A stretch of DNA of 13,805 nt. Source: a virus (Duplodnaviria > Heunggongvirae > Uroviricota > Caudoviricetes). Below are positions 1,511 through 13,313 of the stretch, one piece after another. The translations under genes and the position numbers were made by a program. Every line of letters starts with the position of its first letter. Positions within the stretch are counted from its first letter, which is position 1. The notes under the pieces are model-generated. The model saw nothing but the letters and a program-made list of their open reading frames with translations. It was not told the origin of the DNA and made no database searches. The stretch lies in the IMG/VR virus record IMGVR_UViG_2713896779_000020, one strand, 5' to 3'.

Positions 1511-4236
1511 TCAAAAATCAGCCTGACTCGGGAGCAGTTTTTGCCAGATGGCTGAAACGTATTTCGCCTGGTAACGTGCATCGTTCAGAGCGTTATGGCG
1601 TTCACCTTCGAATGGAATAGTCGTTCTTGCGTCGAAATCCATCACCAGTCCCAGAGCAACCATCGTTCTTACATCGCGATCATTGGTGTAACGACATGGG
1701 CAGGGGATCCCCTGCCGTTCATATGAACGGCGTAAAATCACGTTGTCGAAAGTTGCACCGTTACCCCAGACCTGAACAAAAAATTCACCGGAGTTTTCGT
1801 CGATAAATTCCCGTAATTGCAGCAGTGCATCATCTAACGGGATTTCATCGGTAAGAATGGCGGATTGCGCTTCGCGTGACTGTTTCAGCCACCACTTAAT
1901 GGTGTCCCGATCAATGACTCCGCCAGCAGTTTCCAGATCGATAGTTTTGCTGAATTCTGGCCCCATCTCTCCGGTTTGCGGATCGAAAAATATTGCACCT
2001 ATTGAGATAATCGGGGCATCAGGATTTTTTCCCATTGTTTCAAGGTCAATCATCAGATGGTGCCACAACCTGCTGGTGGATGTAATTTCACGATGACCGT
2101 TCACCTTAATTAAGGGATTTGCTGTCTCGCCACTTTCATTATCTGTGGTGTGGTAGTGATCGCCGCCACTGCCTTCCATTTCCTCCTGAGCTTCAGCCTG
2201 ATTTTCTTCATCGAATGTTTCCTGGCAGGTTGCGTCGCCCATCACCGCGCCACAATCAGGGCAGTTGCCGCCACCACTCTGACCGCAGGCGGTACAGACT
2301 TTTTCCTCTTCCTGTTGCGCTACTGGTTCGGATTGTTTCGTTTCTGGCTCGTCTTGTAACGCATTTGGGCTGTTTTGTTCCGCTTTTTGGTCGTTCTGTT
2401 CCGTTTCTGACTGGTTCTGGTTCACAGAATCGCAGGTTTCAATCCCCTTCACCCATTTCGGATCATTCGGGTCGCTAATCCCTTCAACAAATTCACCACG
2501 TGATGCAGCAAGCAATTTATCGGCGTCAGGCTGGCTGATATTGGCTGCCTGCATAATTTTGTTTACTTCGTCAGCGGTAACTTTTACCGGCTCCGGTTGT
2601 ACGGAATCTTCAGCGGTATCCACATTTTGCGGTAAGTCCGTGTATGTTCCGTTTTTGCGGGCAAGATATTCTTCTTTCGTGATTTCAGTAGCCCCGGCAG
2701 CCAGCGCCTTGTCCAGACCAGAAAGTTTGTTTGCGCGACCGTATTTTTCGCCATCCTTGTCGGTGAAGAGGAANNNNNNNNNNNNNNNNNNNNNNNNNNN
2801 NNNNNNNNNNNNNNNNNNNNNNNGCTGATATTGGCTGCCTGCATAATTTTGTTTACTTCGTCAGCGGTAACTTTTACCGGCTCTGATTGTTCGGAATCTT
2901 CAGCGGTATCCACATTTTGCGGTAAGCCCGTGTATGTGCCATTTTTTCGGGCAAAATATTCTTCTTTTGAGATTTCGGTACCGCCGGCAGCCAGCGCCTT
3001 GTCCAGACCAGAAAGTTTGTTTGCCCTGCCGTATTTTTCCCCGCCCTTATCGGTAAAGACGAAATAAAATGGTCCTTCACGCTCTACAGATGGTTCAGCT
3101 TCCACCAGGATTTCATTTTTTTGAGTATCGGATTCTGCCGTCTCCACTGGAGCAGTTTGTGCTGCTGACGGCTGGAGAGCATCAGTAGAGCTCTGGTCTG
3201 TTTCTTCATGTTCAAACACGCCCTTTGTCGTCAGGTATTCACTGATATATTTGTTCAGTGCAACGGGATCTTTGTGAATATCGATCGGACGTTCGCGAAC
3301 AAGGCCAAAAATAGTCTGACGGTCATAGCCAAGTGCTTCGGGCTGTTTGCGCATTGATGCTGAGATACGCTTCCAGTCTTCGCGATCCTTGTCGATAACC
3401 TCATTTGTCGCCCAGCGATGGATGGTACCGTCAATGTTTCCTGCATCCACATCACCGGGCCAGAGGGCGCAGGCCAGTTCATTGTCGAGTGTTTTCCATG
3501 TCTGTTTGTATTCGCGGCGAATGGCAACAGTGACAGCCCCGGTTTTTTCAGCAGCGTTTTCAGTGTTCTGTTGGTTGACTCTGGCGCGGGTGAGATCAAC
3601 AACAGACGTGTATTTTCCGGTTTCCTTGCGTTCACCTTCGCGACGTTTTTTCCAGATGCGCATCTCTGCCTGAATTTCAGGCCATTTAGCGCCAGGCTCA
3701 CATTTATGCTTAACCCACCCGATGGCATGCAGTTTAAGTTCAGGATACATGGCGTTAACTTCTGGCATTTTCATCAACGCTTCAACGATATGTCCGCCGA
3801 ATGTTGCCATGTCTTCCTGTAGTAATTCCTGTGCGCTAATCACCATATCAACGGTGATGTTTTCGCATGTGTCGAATTTAACCAGGACTGCGTTCTGTAC
3901 TTCAGGGGACAGCTTGTCAAAATTGACGTTCATCGGATCGGATTCTGGTTCGACCGGTACAAAGGAAGCTGACTCCTCATCCCAGCGGTTTTCCTGCATA
4001 TATTCGGTATCCCAGGAATCGAGGGCAGGGCGGGGTATGCCGGGTTTATCCTCGCAGACAATAAATTTATAAGCGCAGTCCTGAGCTGCCGGGAATTGCT
4101 CCAGAAATTGCCAGTGAAATTTTGCGCGTGCGCGACGCTCATCACCGGCTTCAATGGCAGTGGCCACCGCAACAGCGCTATCTTCTTTTATGGCCTGTTC
4201 GTCAGGAATAGCAGCGCAAATAAAGATTTTACTCAT
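1511..4236 (-). CDS. Large phage exonuclease (annotated in related prophages as exodeoxyribonuclease VIII-like) with a C-terminal DEDD-type 3'-5' exonuclease domain; interrupted by a 50-N gap and a duplicated 240-bp segment
   Basis: The ORF-track pieces 2584-4236 and 1511-2623 share the peptide [30 protein letters not shown] in the two repeat copies. The C-terminal part shows the three DEDD motifs (MIDLETMG; [13 protein letters not shown]; [10 protein letters not shown]). If the two repeat copies are collapsed, the two pieces join in frame into one ORF of about 812 codons. The reading frame across the N-run cannot be verified. Confidence 0.6.
2534..3063. repeat. Imperfect 240-bp direct repeat (2534-2773 and 2824-3063) flanking the N-run
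   Basis: Both copies start GCTGATATTGGCTGCCTGCATAATTTTGTTTACTTCGTCAGCGG. Constant offset of 290 nt with no indels; by my hand count about 20 mismatches over 240 bp (roughly 90% identity). Confidence 0.9.
2774..2823. other. Run of 50 N (assembly or scaffold gap, or masked bases)
   Basis: Literal n characters in the sequence. Confidence 0.99.
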
Positions 4237-4329
4237 TGTGTTTTAACCTCATTACAGATTTAAGGGTGAACAAATCCCTGCCATTGCTGGCATATAAAAA
4301 TGAAACCGGATATTAATTACGGTGCTGTT

Positions 4330-4521
4330 TTAAAGTCCTGCCGGTATTTCGTTATTATTAGTGTGAGTAGTTTTATCTACCGGATAACAGTTACCGGGAA
4401 TTTTTTGTTCTGCTGCTGCAGCCATGCATTCTTTCATTGAACCGTATAAGCCAGTCACCAGCTCAAGAGATTCGCCGGAAACAAGATAAACTGTCAGAAC
4501 GAGTGCAAATGTTGTATTCAT
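4330..4521 (-). CDS. ydfD: Small membrane protein, YdfD-like (DUF1482-type), 63 aa
   Basis: 63-aa ORF directly downstream of dicB with a hydrophobic N-terminal segment (FALVLTVYLVSG) and a C-terminal KIPGNCYPVDK...EIPAGL. The size and position match ydfD of the Qin dicB locus as I recall it. Confidence 0.6.
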   Translation of the reverse strand: MNTTFALVLTVYLVSGESLELVTGLYGSMKECMAAAAEQKIPGNCYPVDKTTHTNNNEIPAGL

Positions 4522-4706
4522 TGTTTATATCCTTTTTGCAGCAGGTCCAGACGAGCCAGCATTGAAGGAATGCATACTTCATTTAACAGGTCCTGCTCGA
4601 GTTTTCTCTGCTTAATGGCGTCTTCAATAAATGTTTTGTCTCCAGTGATAACGCCAATTTCGAAACGAAGTTCAGACGTGCTGGCATTACATGATAACTT
4701 TTCCAT
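4518..4706 (-). CDS. dicB: Cell-division inhibitor DicB homologue (62 aa)
   Basis: The internal-ATG product MEKLSCNASTSELRFEIGVITGDKTFIEDAIKQRKLEQDLLNEVCIPSMLARLDLLQKGYKQ is the same length as E. coli K-12 DicB and shares its blocks (FEIGV, TEDAI..RK, SMLARL) as recalled. GAGGA ribosome-binding site 5' of the ATG. The longer track ORF (to 4814) would run into the dicF region. Confidence 0.8.
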   Translation of the reverse strand: MEKLSCNASTSELRFEIGVITGDKTFIEDAIKQRKLEQDLLNEVCIPSMLARLDLLQKGYKQ

Positions 4707-4885
4707 TATCGCGTCCTCAACAATGAATTTTGTGATGCGGTGCCTGGTGCCTTCAGGTGACGTTAACCAGTTAACAATTAACGCCGGATACAGAGCATTC
4801 TCGTTACTCAGCAAATGACCGCTTTACCGATTTAACTGTTCCGCGTGCGCTGAGCCGCATTCACCGCATCACAAAATTCACTTTT

Positions 4886-4944
4886 AAAAAAGGGCGGCAG
4901 AGCAGTCACGGAGTAAAACTGATACCGCCAAATGTCACCAGAAT
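4886..4944 (-). ncRNA. dicF: DicF small RNA homologue with intrinsic terminator tail
   Basis: The minus strand reads ATTCTGGTGACATTTGGCGGTATCAGTTTTACTCCGTGACTGCTCTGCCGCCC followed by TTTTTT. This differs at only two positions from the 53-nt K-12 DicF sequence as I remember it, and it lies directly upstream of dicB as in Qin. Confidence 0.85.
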
Positions 4945-5279
4945 ATTGATAACAGAGGGCGTTGCAGCGGGGTTGTCACTTAAGCGTATGGTCAACCTGA
5001 CAACCCGGTGTCCTCAACGGGGAAAGAATAACCCCGCCATACTTACCGCCGCGCCATTTCGCGGATTGCCACAACCGGAAGCGCACGGTCGAATTAAATT
5101 TAACGACGGCTCTAAGGGAGAAGGACTTCGCCGTGCACTTTCGTGTTATGCCCTGACTTTTCAGGGATATATCCTTTCAGTAAACTGTCAGTGCCGGATT
5201 CTTATCTGTGTCCGGCGCACGACCACACGTAGCAGCGTGTTGGTCTCCATTTTTAATTCAGCCCTTAATGGAGGATAAA

Positions 5280-5465
5280 ATGCCAAACAAACCATGCCCT
5301 GCCTGTAACGCTCTTTCTGGCTTTTTAGAGAAGGGCGGTTATTACATTTTTAACTGTCCAGAACATGTTGAATTTCATATATCAAAACTTGACAGTATCA
5401 TTACAAAGCCAAATCAGTATCAGTCTGATTTACTGAATAAAGAGTTAAACGCCGCCCGAGATTAA
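5280..5465 (+). CDS. Small zinc-ribbon protein, Lar/RalR-like (restriction-alleviation family), 61 aa
   Basis: GGAGG ribosome-binding site 6 nt before the ATG at 5280. Product MPNKPCPACNALSGFLEKGGYYIFNCPEHVEF... has a C-x2-C ... GYY ... C-x2-H pattern resembling the KPCPFCG...GYY...C-x2-C arrangement of Rac RalR/Lar as recalled. It is on the opposite strand to the surrounding operon. Confidence 0.5.
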   Translation: MPNKPCPACNALSGFLEKGGYYIFNCPEHVEFHISKLDSIITKPNQYQSDLLNKELNAARD

Positions 5466-5502
5466 GGGCGTAGTGGCCCATTAAAAATATTGCAAAGACC
5501 AA

Positions 5503-6041
5503 CTATTGTTGAACTGGATTAAACCAGTAATTCTCTATTGCTCTTATTGTTACCATCGGATGATTGCCGGGGGTTATTTTAAGTTCGGGAGGAAAAGGCT
5601 CTCCATCAGCAGCCATCATTGAGTATGTGAAATCCGCCGACGCAGTCCCTTTCATGATAATTCCGAATTTTTCAAGTAATGAGAGCAGTTCCGGTAATCC
5701 TGTGTCATCTGAATAACTTTCCTCATAGAAAGAAGCGATTGCCGCAGGAGATGACAGTTCTCGCTCTGCAATTTTTTTGTAGTTTTCCAGAATTCTTTTT
5801 TTGAATACTTTTCCTCGACATGAAAACCCATCACCGAGGCAATCCGCTTTGCAGTTTCTTCAGTATTCTGGTTGTTTGTTACCGAAACAGAGTACAATCC
5901 GGTAAACGCATCGCGCACATTACGAGCCATATTATCAATGTATTTCTTCGTTGCAGATTCTAATTCAACTTCGTTCAGACGTTGGTGAAGTGCATGTGCT
6001 GCAATTTCCTGGATTTCTTTTAGTAAATCTTTAAATTCCAT
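5503..6041 (-). pseudogene. Hypothetical protein gene with a -1 frame change: the N-terminal frame (track ORF 5652-6041, 129 aa) continues in the -1 frame to a stop at 5503-5505; either a frameshift, a homopolymer sequencing error or programmed slippage
   Basis: GGAG ribosome-binding site before the ATG at 6041. After the A7 run (plus-strand T7 at 5796-5802) the annotated frame turns into low-quality sequence (LQSENCHLLRQSLLSMRKV...), while the -1 frame reads a protein-like 95 aa with no start codon (...KKRILENYKKIAERELSSPAAIASFYEESYSDDTGLPELLSLLEKFGII...NPVQQ*). Total span is 539 nt, consistent with one frame change. Confidence 0.5.
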
Positions 6042-6052
6042 CTTTAACTCCG

Positions 6053-6181
6053 TTAGTCGTTAGATTTTGCCGAACTGGAAAGCGCCTGTTTAAACTCACT
6101 GAAGCTGAGAGCTTCCTCGCCTTCGGCAAGGCCTTCGAAGTATTCTTCGTAAGCCTTTTCCATGATTGTGTCGAAATCCAT
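6053..6181 (-). CDS. ydfB: Small acidic protein, YdfB-like (42 aa)
   Basis: ORF below the 60-aa track threshold, found by hand: MDFDTIMEKAYEEYFEGLAEGEEALSFSEFKQALSSSAKSND. AGGTGA ribosome-binding site; the start is 1 nt after the ydfA-like stop. Size and position match ydfB of Qin as recalled. Confidence 0.5.
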   Translation of the reverse strand: MDFDTIMEKAYEEYFEGLAEGEEALSFSEFKQALSSSAKSND

Positions 6182-6182
6182 A

Positions 6183-6338
6183 TCACTCACCTGAGTTTCT
6201 TTCCAGCCAGCGACGGGCACCATTTTCGGTTTTAAACGTTTTGCTTTTGGTATACGTCATCGCGGTGAATGTACCGTCCTGGTTGGGAAACACGCCGTAC
6301 ACCAGAGATTCGTTGTTGCCAAGATCGATAGTATCCAT
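6183..6338 (-). CDS. ydfA: Small protein, YdfA-like (DUF1391-type), 51 aa
   Basis: Internal ATG at 6338 with a GAGG ribosome-binding site gives MDTIDLGNNESLVYGVFPNQDGTFTAMTYTKSKTFKTENGARRWLERNSGE. It is the first gene after the leftward promoter; size and position match ydfA of Qin as recalled. Confidence 0.5.
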   Translation of the reverse strand: MDTIDLGNNESLVYGVFPNQDGTFTAMTYTKSKTFKTENGARRWLERNSGE

Positions 6339-6519
6339 GTTGACCTCATTTCCCCTTAACGCCGGGTAGCGGAACAAAAACCTGCTGCATAGTTATTAAA
6401 GTTGAACCCTGCCGTCATGTTCATACGCCTCGGGCTGGCTACTTACCCCCTGACCACTGCCTGGTAACTCGAAGTATTGCCCGGCGTTCTGTGGGGCGGG
6501 GTGGGTGGTTGGTGTATGT

Positions 6520-6562
6520 AATCTACAATTAAAAACTGTTTTGTGTCAACAGTTTTTAATTG
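6520..6562 (-). promoter_or_regulatory. Leftward early promoter (PL-like) with overlapping palindromic operator for the ydfA-ydfB-dicF-dicB operon
   Basis: Minus strand: -35 TTGACA (6549-6544), 18-bp spacer, -10 TAGATT (6525-6520). It is embedded in a perfect palindrome CAATTAAAAACTGTT-N7-AACAGTTTTTAATTG (6526-6562). Confidence 0.55.
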
Positions 6563-6573
6563 TTGTTTTGGGC

Positions 6574-6595
6574 AAAAAAATCCCTCGAAAGAGGG
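6574..6595 (-). terminator. Intrinsic terminator ending the repressor-antitoxin-toxin operon
   Basis: The minus strand reads CCCTC-TTTC-GAGGG followed by A-TTTTTTT, located 20-40 nt downstream of the parE-type stop. Confidence 0.5.
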
Positions 6596-6614
6596 AGTAT
6601 GAAAATTGTTCAAC

Positions 6615-6902
6615 TCAGATAGAGAAGGGAAATTGTCGCCGAGAATGTGTCACGCTTACAATCTCAATGCTTGAAGCAGCTACTCTGTACAGGATTATGT
6701 AGTTAGGGTGGGTCACGATCTCTCTCAATCCAGAAACCCGTTCGCTTGGTGGATATAAGTACGGATGCTCAGATAGAGGTAATACCGATGTTTCAATGCG
6801 TATTTTTAGTCTACGTGCTGCCGGTGGGTTCTCCTTGGCGATGTAAGTTATGATCTGGCGCAAATCATCGCGAGCAGACGGTAGCCATAAAATGGGTAAC
6901 AT
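6615..6902 (-). CDS. parE: Type II toxin, RelE/ParE family (ParE2-like), 95 aa
   Basis: MLPILWLPSARDDLRQIITYIAKENPPAARRLKIRIETSVLPLSEHPYLYPPSERVSGLREIVTHPNYIILYRV... fits the ParE pattern as recalled. The start overlaps the antitoxin stop (TAATG). Confidence 0.7.
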   Translation of the reverse strand: MLPILWLPSARDDLRQIITYIAKENPPAARRLKIRIETSVLPLSEHPYLYPPSERVSGLREIVTHPNYIILYRVAASSIEIVSVTHSRRQFPFSI

Positions 6903-7093
6903 TACTCGCTCTTGTTAGTTACAGCAATTTGAGCAATAAGATTTTCCATTTCAGCCATTACCTCGTCATGTGGAATTGCGGGGCGAGTGTCTGCAAGGCT
7001 TGACGTTACTTTAGTGCGCAACCATTCGTTGTAACTGTTTTCTTGTTCGGTAGTTTCGAATTCTGAAACTATCGGAGAAAGGGCTGTACCCAT
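6902..7093 (-). CDS. paaA2: Antitoxin, PaaA2-like (ParE-associated antitoxin), 63 aa
   Basis: MGTALSPIVSEFETTEQENSYNEWLRTKVTSSLADTRPAIPHDEV... closely matches the PaaA2 sequence of E. coli O157 as I recall it (ALSPMVSEFETIEQENSYNEWLRAKV..SLAD.RPAIPHDEV). GAGGAG ribosome-binding site; immediately upstream of the toxin. Confidence 0.65.
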   Translation of the reverse strand: MGTALSPIVSEFETTEQENSYNEWLRTKVTSSLADTRPAIPHDEVMAEMENLIAQIAVTNKSE

Positions 7094-7120
7094 GGCATAA
7101 CTCCTCTTCTTGTACTGTGG

Positions 7121-7522
7121 TCACGCCCGGCGGCTTTTTTGTGCCGCCAGCCACCTAGCAATGGTTTCTTCCATTGATTTTTTCTTGTCTTTGATTTCTT
7201 GAAGCATTTTTTCTTGGTCTTCCTCAGGAAACGCACTAAAAGCTTGGAGCAGTTCGCGTTGGCGAGGACCAATTTTCATCGTGTCAGGGGTGAAAATTTG
7301 CTCACACTCTTCAGGAGGCAATAAAAACCAATGCAATGGATGCCCTGAAACCTCAACCAGTTTATCCAAACTTGAGGCTTTAGGTGTAGCCTTACCGCTG
7401 ACCCATTGTTGAACAGTTTGTTGTGTCACACCAATTCTACGGGCAAGCTCAGCCTGGCTCCATCCAGTTTCCTGAAGAAGCTTGCTGATTCTGTACATAG
7501 ATACTTCTAGGGCGCTCATCAT
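7121..7522 (-). CDS. HTH_XRE transcriptional regulator, DicA/PaaR2-like; candidate prophage repressor
   Basis: Helix-turn-helix SQAELARRIGVTQQTVQQWVSGK near the N-terminus. First gene of the operon with the antitoxin and toxin, and divergent from the cro-like gene. The start is ambiguous: 7522 (MMSALEV...) or the internal ATG at 7498 (MYRISKLLQETGW...), the latter giving a more typical HTH N-terminus. Confidence 0.7.
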   Translation of the reverse strand: MMSALEVSMYRISKLLQETGWSQAELARRIGVTQQTVQQWVSGKATPKASSLDKLVEVSGHPLHWFLLPPEECEQIFTPDTMKIGPRQRELLQAFSAFPEEDQEKMLQEIKDKKKSMEETIARWLAAQKSRRA

Positions 7523-7563
7523 TATTCAATTTTACAGGTAAATACTGTTAAAAGCACCACAAT

Positions 7564-7602
7564 AAAAAACTGTTGATTGCATACAGTTTTTTATTGTAGG
7601 CT
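7564..7602 (+). promoter_or_regulatory. Rightward early promoter (PR-like) with overlapping operator, paralogous to the leftward unit
   Basis: AAAAAACTGT-N9-ACAGTTTTTT inverted repeat (7564-7592); -35 TTGATT (7573-7578), 18-bp spacer, -10 TAGGCT (7597-7602). An extra half-site ACTGTT lies at 7544-7549. GGAGG ribosome-binding site at 7621-7625 before the cro-like ATG. Confidence 0.5.
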
Positions 7603-7630
7603 TTGCTTATAGTTTTTAGAGGAGGGCAAA

Positions 7631-7903
7631 ATGCTAGATAGCACTCGCGAAAAAATTAGGCAGAAATACACTCAGGCTGAAATAGGTCGTTATATGGGGG
7701 TCGCTCAACAGACTGTTTGGCAATGGTTTAGCTTTGGCGTTCCCCCAAAGCAGGTAATTCCGTTATGCCAACTAATGAAGTGGGAAGTTACCCCGCATGA
7801 AATCCGCCCAGATATTTATCCTAACCCAACCGACGGTTTACCTGTTGGATGTAAGGTTAACACATCAAATGCGCCGGAGTTGATTCATGAAAATCAAGCA
7901 TGA
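7631..7903 (+). CDS. Cro/YdaS-like small HTH protein (90 aa)
   Basis: Divergent from the repressor. Helix-turn-helix GRYMGVAQQTVWQW. Strong ribosome-binding site. Confidence 0.7.
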   Translation: MLDSTREKIRQKYTQAEIGRYMGVAQQTVWQWFSFGVPPKQVIPLCQLMKWEVTPHEIRPDIYPNPTDGLPVGCKVNTSNAPELIHENQA

Positions 7904-8312
7904 ACACATCCGCATGGCGATGAATGCCTGGGCGCATCCGGACGGCGAAAAAGTACCGGCTGCGAAAATTACCAAAGCGTATTTCGAGCTGGGAATGACG
8001 TTCCCGGAACTGTATGACGACAGCCATCCGGAAGCCATGGCTCGCAATACTCAGAAAATTTTCCGCTGGGTGGAGAAAGACACTCCTGATGCGGTTAAAA
8101 AAATTCAGGCGTTGTTACCAGCGATCGAAAAAGCGATGCCGCCTCCGCTGGTGGCCCGAATGCGCAGCCACAGTTCCGCTTATTTTCGGGAGTTGGTAGA
8201 GACGAAGGAACGGCTGGTGAAAGATATTGATGATTTCGTTGCATCAGCGATCGTTCTGTTCGATCAGATGAATCGTGGTGGCCCGGCAGGAAACACTCTG
8301 GCTGTGCATTAA
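7887..8312 (+). CDS. ydaT: YdaT-like protein (141 aa)
   Basis: The N-terminus MKIKHEHI matches my recollection of Rac YdaT, and it has the same position after the cro-like gene. Its start overlaps the cro-like stop by 17 nt. Confidence 0.5.
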   Translation: MKIKHEHIRMAMNAWAHPDGEKVPAAKITKAYFELGMTFPELYDDSHPEAMARNTQKIFRWVEKDTPDAVKKIQALLPAIEKAMPPPLVARMRSHSSAYFRELVETKERLVKDIDDFVASAIVLFDQMNRGGPAGNTLAVH

Positions 8313-8325
8313 TTGGGTAATAAAT

Positions 8326-8835
8326 ATGAGTAATGACAAAAAATTGACACTGAGCGTTTACGAAAACAGTCCGCACATCTGGCGTGGCGGTTTATCTGAT
8401 GTGGAGCTGGCAGAGTGGTTGATACATAAAGCTAATGCGCTGCTCTGGCGTTTGTCAGCCAGAGAACAGCGCAAGGAAACCAGAATAAAGCTGGCTGATG
8501 CAGAAGCGTGTGCCGGGCTTATTGAGGATTATACAAATCTTGGTATTTCTTCAGCAGAGAGTGATCCCATTCAGCCTCTGAGCAGGGAGTCAATCCAGCA
8601 CGCTGGTTGTATGGCACATCTTGTAACTGCTCGTCAACATGAGGTGGGTATTGGATCACTTCCGGTGGGATATTCGCTGATTCCAGAGCTGGTTGAAGCA
8701 AGAAAATCAGTTCAGAAAAAGAGAGATGACGCACTTCAATTATTGAGAGAGCACTATGGCGCGATACCAGAATGCGAACAGCATCGATACCCTGAAGGTT
8801 ATGAATGGATGCAGTCTCTTTTTGAAGTTCGCTAA
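8326..8835 (+). CDS. Hypothetical protein (169 aa from the internal ATG)
   Basis: I chose ATG 8326 (MSNDKKLTLSVYENSPHIWRGG...) rather than the track start at 8275, which overlaps ydaT-like. No motif recognised. Confidence 0.5.
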   Translation: MSNDKKLTLSVYENSPHIWRGGLSDVELAEWLIHKANALLWRLSAREQRKETRIKLADAEACAGLIEDYTNLGISSAESDPIQPLSRESIQHAGCMAHLVTARQHEVGIGSLPVGYSLIPELVEARKSVQKKRDDALQLLREHYGAIPECEQHRYPEGYEWMQSLFEVR

Positions 8836-8941
8836 TCAATATGTCGAGACGAAGGTATGTTTCGGCGCGCAGCCAGGCTCTGTAATCCGGGAGCATTTCG
8901 GGGCTGTTACACCAGCGGTTTGTTGCTGCAACATTTAATAC

Positions 8942-10226
8942 ATGAGCCTGATAAAGGCTTTTCAAAAAATACATGTCGAACCTCCTCTGGTTCTGTCGAT
9001 TGGGAACCACAGATTATATCCGGAGGAAGGTTCGGCACCAGATGAGGTAGCCATGCGTGATTACGCAAAAGTTTCTCCGCGATTCTGGCTGGGAGAAACG
9101 GGGAGAGAACTTAGAAAGGCGGGTGCAGAAGCGCAAGTTGTTGCTTTTTACCTGATGACATCCCCTCACGCAAATATGCTGGGTTTGTATTACCTGCCAG
9201 TTTTATACCTTGCTCATGAAACCGGGCTTGGTCTGGAAGGGGCTTCAAAGGGGCTTAAAAGGGCTGTTGAAGCTGGTTTTTGTAGCTATGACCATGATGC
9301 AGAGATGGTCTGGGTCCATGAAATGGCAGCCTGGCAGGTTGGGGAAACGTTGAAGCCTGGCGATAACCGTTGTGCAGGTGTCAGGAATGAGTATGCATCA
9401 TTACCTGAAAACGCTTTTCTGTCAGTGTTTTACGACAGATATAAAACGGATTTCCATCTGGATGTGAGGCGGAATAATAGCCGAAATTCGGTAAGGGGCT
9501 TCGAAGGGGCTTTTAAGGGGCTTCGAAGCCAAGAACAGGAACAGGAGCAGGAGAAAGAACAGGAACAGGACAAAAACACTATGGTTCATGGCAAAAAAAA
9601 CACCACGAACCAGGCAGGGGATGTTCAGACCGTCAATCCTGGTCAGCCAGCAGGCACGACACCGNNNNNNNNNNNNNNNNNNNNNNNNNNNNNNNNNNNN
9701 NNNNNNNNNNNNNNAAGCCGATTCAGCGTATGCGCTGAAAGCCGATTCGGGCGCTGTGCAGCAGGTGATGACCGCAGGGTCGGAGCAATCACACCAACTG
9801 CAGCAGCCTGAAGCCGATTCCGCCATTCAGCGGGAAGCCGATCGGGTAGTCCCGGAAAGCACCGGGCAGTCTGTGGGACGAGTGGATTATCCGGATGTGT
9901 TCGAACAGGTCTGGCGGGAATACCCGTTGCGTGCTGGGGCAAACCCGAAGAAATCCGCTTTCAGTGCCTGGAAGGCCAGATTGCGCGAGGGGGTGCCACC
10001 AGAGACCATGCTGGATGGTGTGAGGCGTTACGCGAGATACCTGGCGGCGACCGGGAAAGCGGGAACGGAATTTGTTCAGCGAGCGACGACGTTTTTTGGG
10101 CCGGACCGGAATTTTGAAAACCCCTGGTTGCTCCCGGTAAGCGGCACGAACAACCAGCGTTGTGTGAATCATATTTCTGAACCGGATACCGAAATTCCGC
10201 CGGGATTCAGGGGTGATGTGGCATGA
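8942..10226 (+). CDS. Replication-initiation (O-like / YdaU-type) protein with a low-complexity linker; interrupted by a 50-N run
   Basis: Track ORFs 8942-9811 and 9588-10226 are each protein-like only on their own side of the gap (N-terminal part before it, C-terminal part ...DYPDVFEQVWREYPLRAGANPKKSAFSAWKARL... after it). The stop overlaps the start of the DnaC-like gene (ATGA). Single-gene status across the gap is an inference. Confidence 0.5.
9237..9523 (+). repeat. Two clusters of three phased direct repeats AAGGGGCTT (11-bp period) inside the replication gene; candidate iterons
   Basis: Cluster 1 copies start at 9237, 9248 and 9259 (the third is degenerate). Cluster 2 copies start at 9493, 9504 and 9515. 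Confidence 0.6.
9665..9714. other. Run of 50 N (assembly or scaffold gap, or masked bases) inside the replication gene
   Basis: Literal n characters. The flanks are repeat-rich: (GAACAG)n at 9531-9572 and AAGCCGATTC-type repeats at 9715-9844. Confidence 0.99.
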
Positions 10227-12539: not shown

Positions 12540-13313
12540 TTATATGCTGAAATGAATAATGCTATTCCAGAGTGCAGCAGAGAAAGTCTCCTGATGATTG
12601 AGCTCTGGAAATTGTACAATAGAAAAATTACTGTATTTTTCTGTCAAAATATTTCTCAAAACAGATTCCGCTTTGATGGCTTCAGGATATAAAGATGCGG
12701 AGTAATCAAGGCTAAGATTTCCGTTAAGCAAGCATATACTTTTAGTGTGCTTTGATTCTGATATATCATCTTTAATTATCTTGATGATTCTTTCATTCTG
12801 CCATAGAAGTGATGGTGCAGATATATAATAATAGTTAAAGCATGAATTATTTTTTAAGCAATCAAGCACAAAAATAGCACCTAGCGAGTGCCCACATATA
12901 CCGATTCTGGAACTGTTCGGAGCAATAGTACTAACCCATGGCATGATCTGAGTTAGTAATAATTCTCGGAAAGACTGGCTTCCTCCACCAGTAAAGTAGA
13001 TCCATGCTGGTTTAGAGTTATCAACAATAGCATTTTCACCATCAGGAGTATAATCGTAAGCACGGCGATGAATGCTAAGGTTATTCCAAGATTCATAACC
13101 AAGTGTAACTAACACTGGTGGATTGGGTAGTGCATCAATAACAGGCAGAATATCAGAAATGTAATTGTTGGCACTATTCCCATCAAGTATATAAAGAGTT
13201 GCATTATTTTTTTTAATGTTTTTTGGAGTAAAAATACATATTTTATATTTGGTGTCATGGTTAATTGAGTTAAATATGCGTGTTTGACAATGAATGTCCA
13301 TATGTTTAGTCAT
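12540..13313 (-). CDS. Alpha/beta-hydrolase-fold esterase-family protein (257 aa) in an AT-rich island
   Basis: Serine-hydrolase nucleophile elbow GHSLGA (GxSxG) with upstream LDGNS and GGGSQSF blocks resembling the putative-esterase family (Fes/IroE/esterase D type). GGAGA-like ribosome-binding site. The gene and its flanks look markedly more AT-rich than the rest of the window (by eye, not computed). Confidence 0.7.
   Translation of the reverse strand: MTKHMDIHCQTRIFNSINHDTKYKICIFTPKNIKKNNATLYILDGNSANNYISDILPVIDALPNPPVLVTLGYESWNNLSIHRRAYDYTPDGENAIVDNSKPAWIYFTGGGSQSFRELLLTQIMPWVSTIAPNSSRIGICGHSLGAIFVLDCLKNNSCFNYYYISAPSLLWQNERIIKIIKDDISESKHTKSICLLNGNLSLDYSASLYPEAIKAESVLRNILTEKYSNFSIVQFPELNHQETFSAALWNSIIHFSI

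Follow-up and report, generated by a model that had tools for sequence, protein, structure and literature searches.

The closest described relative of the locus analysed here is the immunity region of prophage CP-933P (Sp12) of E. coli O157:H7, in which PaaR2 is the functional CI analogue, YdaS the Cro analogue and YdaT the CII analogue (Jurenas et al. 2021, PMC8630535). There, the rightward promoter PR, the repressor promoter PRM, the leftward promoter PL and the establishment promoter PRE were shown by 5' RACE (rapid amplification of cDNA ends), electrophoretic mobility shift assays, footprinting and green fluorescent protein reporters, and PaaR2 and YdaS both footprint the 97-bp intergenic region (PMC8630535). 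PL933P lies just beyond parE2, is active, carries operators like those of the rightward region (OR) and is repressed about 100-fold by PaaR2 or YdaS; the ydaS/ydaT junction, the PRE-like position of CP-933P, holds a promoter that YdaT activates (PMC8630535). The paaR2 mRNA is leaderless by 5' RACE and N-terminal sequencing, and PaaR2 itself is octameric, shows weak activation followed by repression and is not expected to undergo SOS cleavage (PMC8630535). Here we describe the corresponding region of a 13,805-nt stretch of Caudoviricetes DNA (IMG/VR record IMGVR_UViG_2713896779_000020; the whole stretch is called the window below). Very probably, it holds an immunity switch in which a 434-like helix-turn-helix (HTH) repressor with a PaaR2/DicA-type C-terminal domain would act at 15-bp operators.

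Positions 6400-7700 of the window are 100% identical to E. coli O121 RM8352, and the window matches prophage Sp4 of O157:H7 Sakai, which we take to be the Sakai counterpart of CP-933M, at 99.9% identity across 2824-9664. CP-933M carries a homologue of paaR2-paaA2-parE2 (PMC8630535). The locus is the immunity region of a lambdoid prophage of the Sp4 / CP-933M type, and its repressor gene is ECs_1069 in Sakai Sp4, where the annotation reads phage repressor protein. Of 5426 complete E. coli genomes, 508 contain 80% or more of 6400-7700; the same OR DNA is in 509, O157:H7, O121 and O103 strains among them. Literature searches on ECs_1069, its neighbours and the Sp4 operators found no operator description. 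No record in the phage collection had the window's repressor; every match there fell below 60% identity, and the closest N-terminal matches were the CI repressors of Shiga toxin (Stx) phages.

Like CP-933P, the window has the same gene order, a homologous toxin-antitoxin (TA) pair, a PL leader, a YdaT site, a leaderless -10-to-ATG geometry and paralogous PL and PR units, and a second promoter with OR-like operators, predicted to be active, lies beyond parE. In a direct comparison with a CP-933P-type locus, the DNA aligned over the leader, the TA genes and the repressor 3' end, a block with approximately 70% identity, and again over ydaT; it did not align over 7187-7875, which comprises the DNA-binding domain, OR and cro, or over the PL operators. 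Since the flanks align and this cassette does not, the DNA-binding domain, OR, cro and PL operators have been exchanged as a set, which is the expected pattern of heteroimmune lambdoid phages. The repressor DNA-binding domain is unrelated to that of PaaR2, the two Cro-like proteins give no BLASTP alignment, and the intergenic region is 108 bp rather than 97 bp. By these sequence comparisons, the window carries a sister heteroimmune module of CP-933P with a different immunity specificity. That the window is CP-933P itself was ruled out: the CP-933P operator consensus GTTTAGTAA occurs at chance level (3 found, 2.7 expected), and PaaR2 starts with MQKKE, which this repressor does not.

The Qin dicA-dicC-dicB region of E. 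coli K-12 is similar in its repressor of about 135 residues, a DicA-type protein with an HTH and a C-terminal helical domain, and in the downstream genes ydfA, ydfB, dicF and dicB. DicA reportedly represses dicB, in work by Bejar, Bouche and colleagues from 1986-88. At the Qin ydfA promoter, one operator lies within the spacer and another upstream, a unit paralogous to the dicA-dicC intergenic site. Unlike the window, Qin has TGTTAG-type operators, no TA pair between the repressor gene and PL, and DicC as the Cro analogue. The Rac racR/ydaS/ydaT region shares the PL leader, the divergent ydaS-ydaT and paralogous PL and PR units (ATTAGGCA..TTGACAAT at both in Rac), but RacR is a different repressor, the operators differ and Rac lacks a TA pair. 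Each of the prophages CP-933P, Rac and Qin has paralogous PL and PR units of its own, with an operator sequence of its own. With the PL / cI-rexAB / PRM-PR / cro-cII region of lambda, the window has in common the overall layout, a cargo slot between the repressor gene and the leftward operator region (OL), a predicted leaderless repressor mRNA and a CII-type site past cro; it differs in the proteins themselves and in having no SOS-cleavable repressor.

A preliminary description of the window had proposed the PL / repressor / PR layout, with ydfA-dicF-dicB on one side, a cro-like gene on the other and an HTH repressor operon between them. That gene order matches the gene calls, and the layout is supported by the locus identity, the CP-933P experiments, the joint variation of operators and DNA-binding domain and the relation of the repressor to DicA. 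The repressor, its Cro-like partner and the elements that would control them are as follows.

6520-6549, minus strand: PL-like promoter, TTGACA-18 nt-TAGATT, with 10 of 12 consensus matches in the promoter scan and a predicted start near 6513
6525-6539: O_L1, ACAATTAAAAACTGT, which fills the PL spacer and shares base 6525 with the PL -10 as the latter's first T
6549-6563: O_L2, ACAGTTTTTAATTGT, an ACAR-N7-YTGT match with an equivalent in Salmonella, Raoultella and Pluralibacter; base 6549 is the first T of the PL -35
7121-7522, minus strand: HTH repressor gene, 133 aa, Pfam HTH_3
7529-7534, minus strand: PRM-like -10, TAAAAT, with the repressor ATG (7522) 6 nt downstream
7534-7548: O_R3, ACAGGTAAATACTGT, which overlaps the PRM-like promoter and fills its spacer
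7559-7573: O_R2, ACAATAAAAAACTGT, centred about 44 bp upstream of the predicted PRM start; its last base, 7573, doubles as the first T of the PR -35
7573-7602, plus strand: PR-like promoter, TTGATT-18 nt-TAGGCT, read from the sequence, with a predicted start near 7609 and facing the Cro-like gene
7583-7597: O_R1, ACAGTTTTTTATTGT, which fills the PR spacer and shares base 7597 with the PR -10 as the latter's first T
7631-7903, plus strand: YdaS-family gene for a Cro-like protein of 90 aa (Pfam YdaS_toxin, 38.8 bits; cutoff 30)

The conserved recognition unit, as judged from the aligned operators, is the 15-mer ACAR-N7-YTGT, which resembles the operators of phage 434. Exactly five matches occur in the 13.8-kb window, all at OL and OR, and in a looser operator search none of 200 shuffles reached the observed count. 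The sites and promoters interlock to the base. Every -10 opens with the last T of an operator (ATTGT/AGATT at PL, ATTGT/AGGCT at PR and CCTGT/AAAAT at PRM, the stroke marking the operator's end), and at PL and PR the -35 opens with the last T of the next upstream operator (ACTGT/TGACA and ACTGT/TGATT). The third OR site, which overlaps the weak leftward PRM-like promoter, had been missed in the preliminary description. The PRM -35 is poor (GTGCTT); O_R2 ends 1 nt from it, in a placement that resembles lambda OR2 at PRM and agrees with the weak activation followed by repression seen for PaaR2 in CP-933P.

Protein searches with the repressor returned relatives in Salmonella (80% identity), in Raoultella, Klebsiella, Pluralibacter and Morganella (65-70%; Raoultella 68% and Pluralibacter 70%) and in a second E. 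coli allele (64-66%), with others lower. A scan of one genome per species gave two loci, and the loci of the relatives were then taken by exact-protein look-up. In Salmonella, Raoultella and Pluralibacter, ACA-N9-TGT recurs at three distances from the repressor ATG that equal those in the window (beginning at -76, -52 and -27), and two further copies lie 23-24 bp apart at each locus's own PL, with different internal bases and spacers. Across an alignment of OR from seven loci, the invariant positions are the ACA/TGT ends of all three sites, the PR TGTTGA (-35) and TGTA (-10) and the repressor start CATCAT, and the inter-operator spacers vary. Also kept in all seven are an ATGATG start, the 6-nt gap before it and the PRM -10, the last with one variable base (on the plus strand ATTTTA in most loci and ATTCTA in Pluralibacter). 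Because this -10 sits 6 nt from the ATG, the repressor mRNA is predicted to be leaderless; the CP-933P repressor promoter has an equal geometry (GATAAT, 6 nt, ATG). Outer OR half-sites, such as ATAGT at 7609-7613, were considered as parts of a four-part symmetric array and rejected, the stretch being variable in the seven-locus alignment.

The repressor itself also points to 434-type recognition. Its best PDB sequence match by phmmer is the 434 repressor DNA-binding domain (E 3e-5), and the recognition helix of its N-terminal HTH, TQQTVQQW, aligns through TQQTVQQ with 434 TQQSIEQ, which puts a Gln at each of the places of 434 Gln28, Gln29 and Gln33. In the 434 crystal structures, these three residues read the ACAA half-site. 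The 434 operators taken from the annotated phage record are ACAAACTTTCTTGT, ACAATGTATCTTGT and ACAGTTTTTCTTGT at OR and ACAATGGAGTTTGT, ACAATATTTATTGT and ACAATCTTCCTTGT at OL. As in 434, the window sites are of the ACAA/ACAG...TTGT kind with A/T-rich centres (compare O_R1 with 434 OR3, ACAGTTTTTCTTGT), and there are three OR sites, with a centre spacing of 24-25 bp against 22-23 bp in 434. The Cro-like YdaS protein has the helix GVAQQTVWQW, in which the Gln-Gln pair at the start is that of the repressor recognition helix (the first two of its three Gln); 434 Cro and 434 repressor likewise share QQS. Unlike 434, the locus has no LexA-like C-terminal domain in its repressor, a YdaS-family Cro analogue and no N/nut elements.

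The specificity of the sites appears to follow the repressor. Promoter-operator DNA at PL and PR changes with the repressor DNA-binding domain in all alleles compared, namely the window, CP-933P, Rac, Qin, the second E. coli allele and Rahnella. For example, the Rahnella recognition helix has Gln-Arg at 434 residues 32-33, and ACAC-N7-GTGT or GAGT repeats stand at the same positions in its own OL and OR. In the second E. coli allele, these residues are Gln-Lys, and ...AACTTTAAAAGTGT repeats (...AAAGTGT) are common to its own OL and OR. Operator position 4 thus seems to change with the Gln33-equivalent residue, as 434-type recognition would predict. The second E. coli allele (L009/L010, 2885-3000 and 3955-4000) encodes a repressor 66% identical to that of the window, with the helix AQQSVQKW, and also has paaA-parE; it probably represents a third immunity specificity on the same scaffold.

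The repressor had been called DicA/PaaR2-like in the preliminary description, and this holds in full for DicA and in part for PaaR2. The relation to DicA is full-length (28% identity, E 6e-12 by BLASTP), and the NCBIfam DicA subfamily model also matches over the full length, at 51.5 bits under a cutoff of 101. By these scores, the repressor is a homologue of DicA rather than a DicA equivalog. With PaaR2, only residues 37-133 align by BLASTP, at 42% identity, rising to approximately 60% across the last 50 residues, and the N-terminal domain is unrelated. In an AlphaFold2 model of the repressor (mean predicted local distance difference test score 82), residues 4-67 form an HTH of five helices and residues 86-131 a helix-turn-long-helix, joined by a linker modelled with low confidence. 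The 133-aa protein gave no peptidase_S24 match when searched for a LexA/S24 cleavage domain, the C-terminus being a helical hairpin; since it has no S24 peptidase domain, SOS/RecA-stimulated cleavage is not expected. A structure search with the model returned nothing for the C-terminal domain, and a PDB sequence search found no PaaR2 structure.

Several observations weigh against a 434-like switch of this kind. In the structure search, the repressor model gave generic XRE-family matches only, with 434 ranked 18th. The window operators are 15 bp (ACAR-N7-YTGT), unlike the 14-bp sites of 434 (ACAA/ACAG-N6-TTGT), so the dimer geometry must differ from that of 434, and OL has two sites, not three. 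By consensus, the PR -10 and the 18-nt spacers of both promoters are poor; the PR unit fails a simple promoter scan, falling below threshold because TAGGCT matches the -10 at only three of six positions. The mirror symmetry of the two 39-bp promoter units described below is left unexplained by two independently bound dimers. Downstream of PL, a simple terminator scan from 6520 to 4518 found no minus-strand terminator-like site, and a scan of this kind leaves room for termination or internal promoters between PL and dicF/dicB.

The main alternative is the operator proposed in the preliminary description, a single 19-bp dyad, ACTGT-N9-ACAGT, centred on the -35 of each promoter and bound by one repressor dimer. 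The strings on which it was based are present, on the minus strand from 6563 to 6520 (AAAAACTGTTGACA-CAAAACAGTTTTTAATTG-TAGATT) and on the plus strand from 7565 to 7602 (AAAAACTGTTGATT-GCATACAGTTTTTTATTG-TAGGCT), and the palindrome is exact at 6535-6553 and 7569-7587 and occurs nowhere else in the window. With up to one mismatch, 0.28 matches would be expected, and at least two were found in 8 of 200 shuffles. The two units are in fact more alike than had been described. At 6525-6563 and 7559-7597, each spans 39 nt, the two are 79% identical to each other, and each is a perfect palindrome with 15-nt arms round a 9-nt centre, ACAAT[T/A]AAAAACTGT-N9-ACAGTTTTT[A/T]ATTGT. The single base that distinguishes the OL from the OR arms is mirrored in both arms, both palindromes are A/T-rich, and in this allele the 39-bp unit is mirror-symmetric about the centre of the 19-bp dyad. 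In relatives, however, the dyad is not kept (ACTGT-N9-ACAAT in Salmonella, ATTGT-N9-ACAGT in Raoultella), and it is the 15-mers with ACA/TGT ends that stay at fixed offsets; neighbouring operators in Salmonella, Raoultella and Pluralibacter are inexact reverse complements of each other (11-14 of 15 positions). The exact OL sequence of the window occurs in only 96 of 478 E. coli genomes, and 366 of the 478 have a copy at 97.3% identity; in Sakai Sp4 the centre is 10 nt and one arm imperfect. Since the symmetry is imperfect in relatives and in most E. coli OL copies, the perfect 39-bp palindrome and the dyad within it are specific to this allele rather than a conserved recognition unit. In addition, O_R3 is a lone 15-mer with no dyad partner, and the ACAG elements of the dyad point outward. 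In established 434 structures, the ACA runs inward, starting at the site's outer edge. We therefore consider the single-dyad operator unlikely: the motif is real at both units, but the conserved unit is the 15-mer, two per promoter unit.

A second alternative is that the palindromes act as nucleic-acid structure, as cruciforms or hairpins in the role of terminators or supercoiling sensors, and not as operators. The perfect 15-nt arms and 9-nt centre would suit such a role, and 6525-6563 was flagged as terminator-like on the plus strand by the scan, but only 3 of the 16 pairs in the stem are G-C, the palindromes lie upstream of the predicted transcription starts, and the perfect symmetry, present at OL in the 96 E. 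coli genomes counted above, is absent in other genera. We regard this as highly improbable. The same holds for its extension, in which negative supercoiling would drive the A/T-rich palindromes into cruciforms, so that PL and PR would sense topology, and the ParE toxin would be coupled to the immunity switch, since ParE-type toxins are thought to interfere with topoisomerases (PMC8630535). Equally implausible is that the repeats are autoregulatory sites of a PaaA-ParE complex: autoregulation of classical type II TA operons works through palindromes in the operon's own promoter, but PaaA2 has no DNA-binding domain (PMC8630535), the second repeat copy stands at a promoter directed away from the TA genes, and relatives without paaA-parE retain all five operators.

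The Salmonella, Raoultella and Pluralibacter loci are those relatives, with other small open reading frames (ORFs) in place of paaA-parE. Because they keep the operators, the operators go with the repressor, not with the TA pair. The slot between the repressor gene and OL (L005/L006 3553-3915, L007/L008 3530-3931 and L011 3550-4008, equivalent to window 6615-7093) holds in Salmonella an ORF of 112-120 aa with a weak EACC1 match below cutoff. In Raoultella and Pluralibacter it holds unrelated ORFs of 133 and 152 aa, for which a Pfam search gave no match. As the position matches that of lambda rexAB, these ORFs are candidate exclusion or defence genes.

The other features on which the proposed switch would act, or which accompany it, are listed below.

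4518-4706, minus strand: dicB (DicB, 3.7e-38)
4518-6338, minus strand: operon predicted to be under PL, comprising ydfA, ydfB, a 129-aa ORF, the DicF small RNA (sRNA) and dicB
4892-4943, minus strand: DicF sRNA, 77 bits in Rfam
6183-6338, minus strand: ydfA (DUF1391/YdfA, 1.7e-28)
6581-6596, minus strand: terminator-like hairpin and T-run between the parE stop and O_L2
6615-6902, minus strand: parE-like toxin gene, Pfam ParE_toxin, 2.9e-17
6902-7093, minus strand: paaA-like antitoxin gene of the PaaA2 family, Pfam PaaA2, 5.6e-19
7880-7897: perfect YdaT site, TTGATTCATGAAAATCAA, in a PRE-like position spanning the ydaS stop and ydaT start
7887-8312, plus strand: ydaT, CII analogue, Pfam YdaT_toxin above cutoff, with DNA 88% identical to CP-933P ydaT

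In the proposed 434-like switch, repressor dimers would bind the ACAR-N7-YTGT operators, and occupation of O1 and O2 at PL and PR would exclude RNA polymerase; a block is expected since O1 fills the spacer and shares the T of the -10, and O2, 9 bp upstream, shares the T of the -35. With PL and PR shut, ydfA-dicF-dicB and the other leftward early genes would be silent, as would the rightward cro-like, ydaT and replication genes. We infer the silence of DicF and DicB in the lysogen from the lack of a terminator-like site between PL and dicB in the scan above, from PL933P and from DicA in Qin. By analogy with lambda CI and PaaR2, the repressor would activate its own PRM at low level and repress it at high level through O_R2 and O_R3. 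The YdaS-like protein would compete for the same operators in the manner of Cro, as expected from a recognition helix that starts with the same Gln-Gln pair. The C-terminal helical domain, on the basis of its homology to the C-terminal part of PaaR2, may oligomerise and allow looping between OL and OR, which are about 1 kb apart.

YdaT at the ydaS/ydaT junction would drive establishment transcription, as CII does at PRE. PMC9986795 gives the motif of this CII analogue as TTGATT-N6-AATCAA, and 7880-7897 matches that form with zero mismatches. In the leftward three-gene operon, the HTH_3 regulator, PaaA2 and ParE_toxin genes stand in that order, and paaA-parE would be cargo rather than a regulator. 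The hairpin at 6581-6596 is likely the end of the repressor-TA operon transcript; the terminator-like stem is kept in other E. coli alleles.

Relative to the window, the OL of Sakai Sp4 (L014, 7366-7405) has a single substitution, in O_L1, and one inserted T. With that extra T, the PL spacer grows from 18 to 19 nt and the gap between operators from 9 to 10 nt. The longer spacer may weaken PL, and hence dicF/dicB expression, in O157:H7.

By sequence, the locus adds a new immunity specificity within a known, experimentally characterised kind of prophage switch, and no new kind of system. One of the DicF sRNA copies, together with the DicB division inhibitor, is predicted to be gated by this module. 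Enterohaemorrhagic E. coli (EHEC) carries dicF in several copies, and a link of DicF to the control of virulence genes at low oxygen has been reported; Sakai Sp4 also carries pchA. With the operators in hand, one can ask which prophage repressor controls which copy of dicF/dicB, and predict cross-immunity among related prophages within one EHEC genome. The locus also provides a natural test of a 434-like recognition helix that would read a site one base pair longer.

The leader between PL and ydfA (6339-6513, minus strand) is approximately 175 nt long and 70-89% identical to those of Rac and CP-933P. Homology with these two prophages sets in a few bases past the start predicted for PL, and the part of the leader shared with Rac reaches to about 6509. 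The first 110 nt or so occur in approximately 3400 of the 5426 E. coli genomes, across different immunity types, and the 5' end is C-rich. As a nut/put-type structured RNA the leader was rejected: its folding energy is no better than that of shuffled sequences (z = 0.87), and Rfam shows only DicF in the window.

Within the predicted PL operon, between the 129-aa ORF and dicF, a small ORF with Cys-x-x-Cys motifs lies antisense at 5208-5465 (plus strand). RefSeq gives a 61-aa hypothetical protein in this region, and an NCBIfam search returned no family match. Leftward past dicB, the minus strand continues with a DUF1482 gene, an exonuclease gene, xis and int. Two masked runs of 50 N, at 2774-2823 and 9665-9714, fall in the exonuclease gene and in an ORF of the replication region, respectively. 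The flanks of the first run repeat part of the exonuclease gene, 2186-2773 and the sequence from 2824 onward mapping to overlapping Sakai coordinates. Downstream of the replication genes and on the opposite strand to them, an alpha/beta hydrolase gene at 12540-13313 (minus strand) looks like inserted cargo (a moron).

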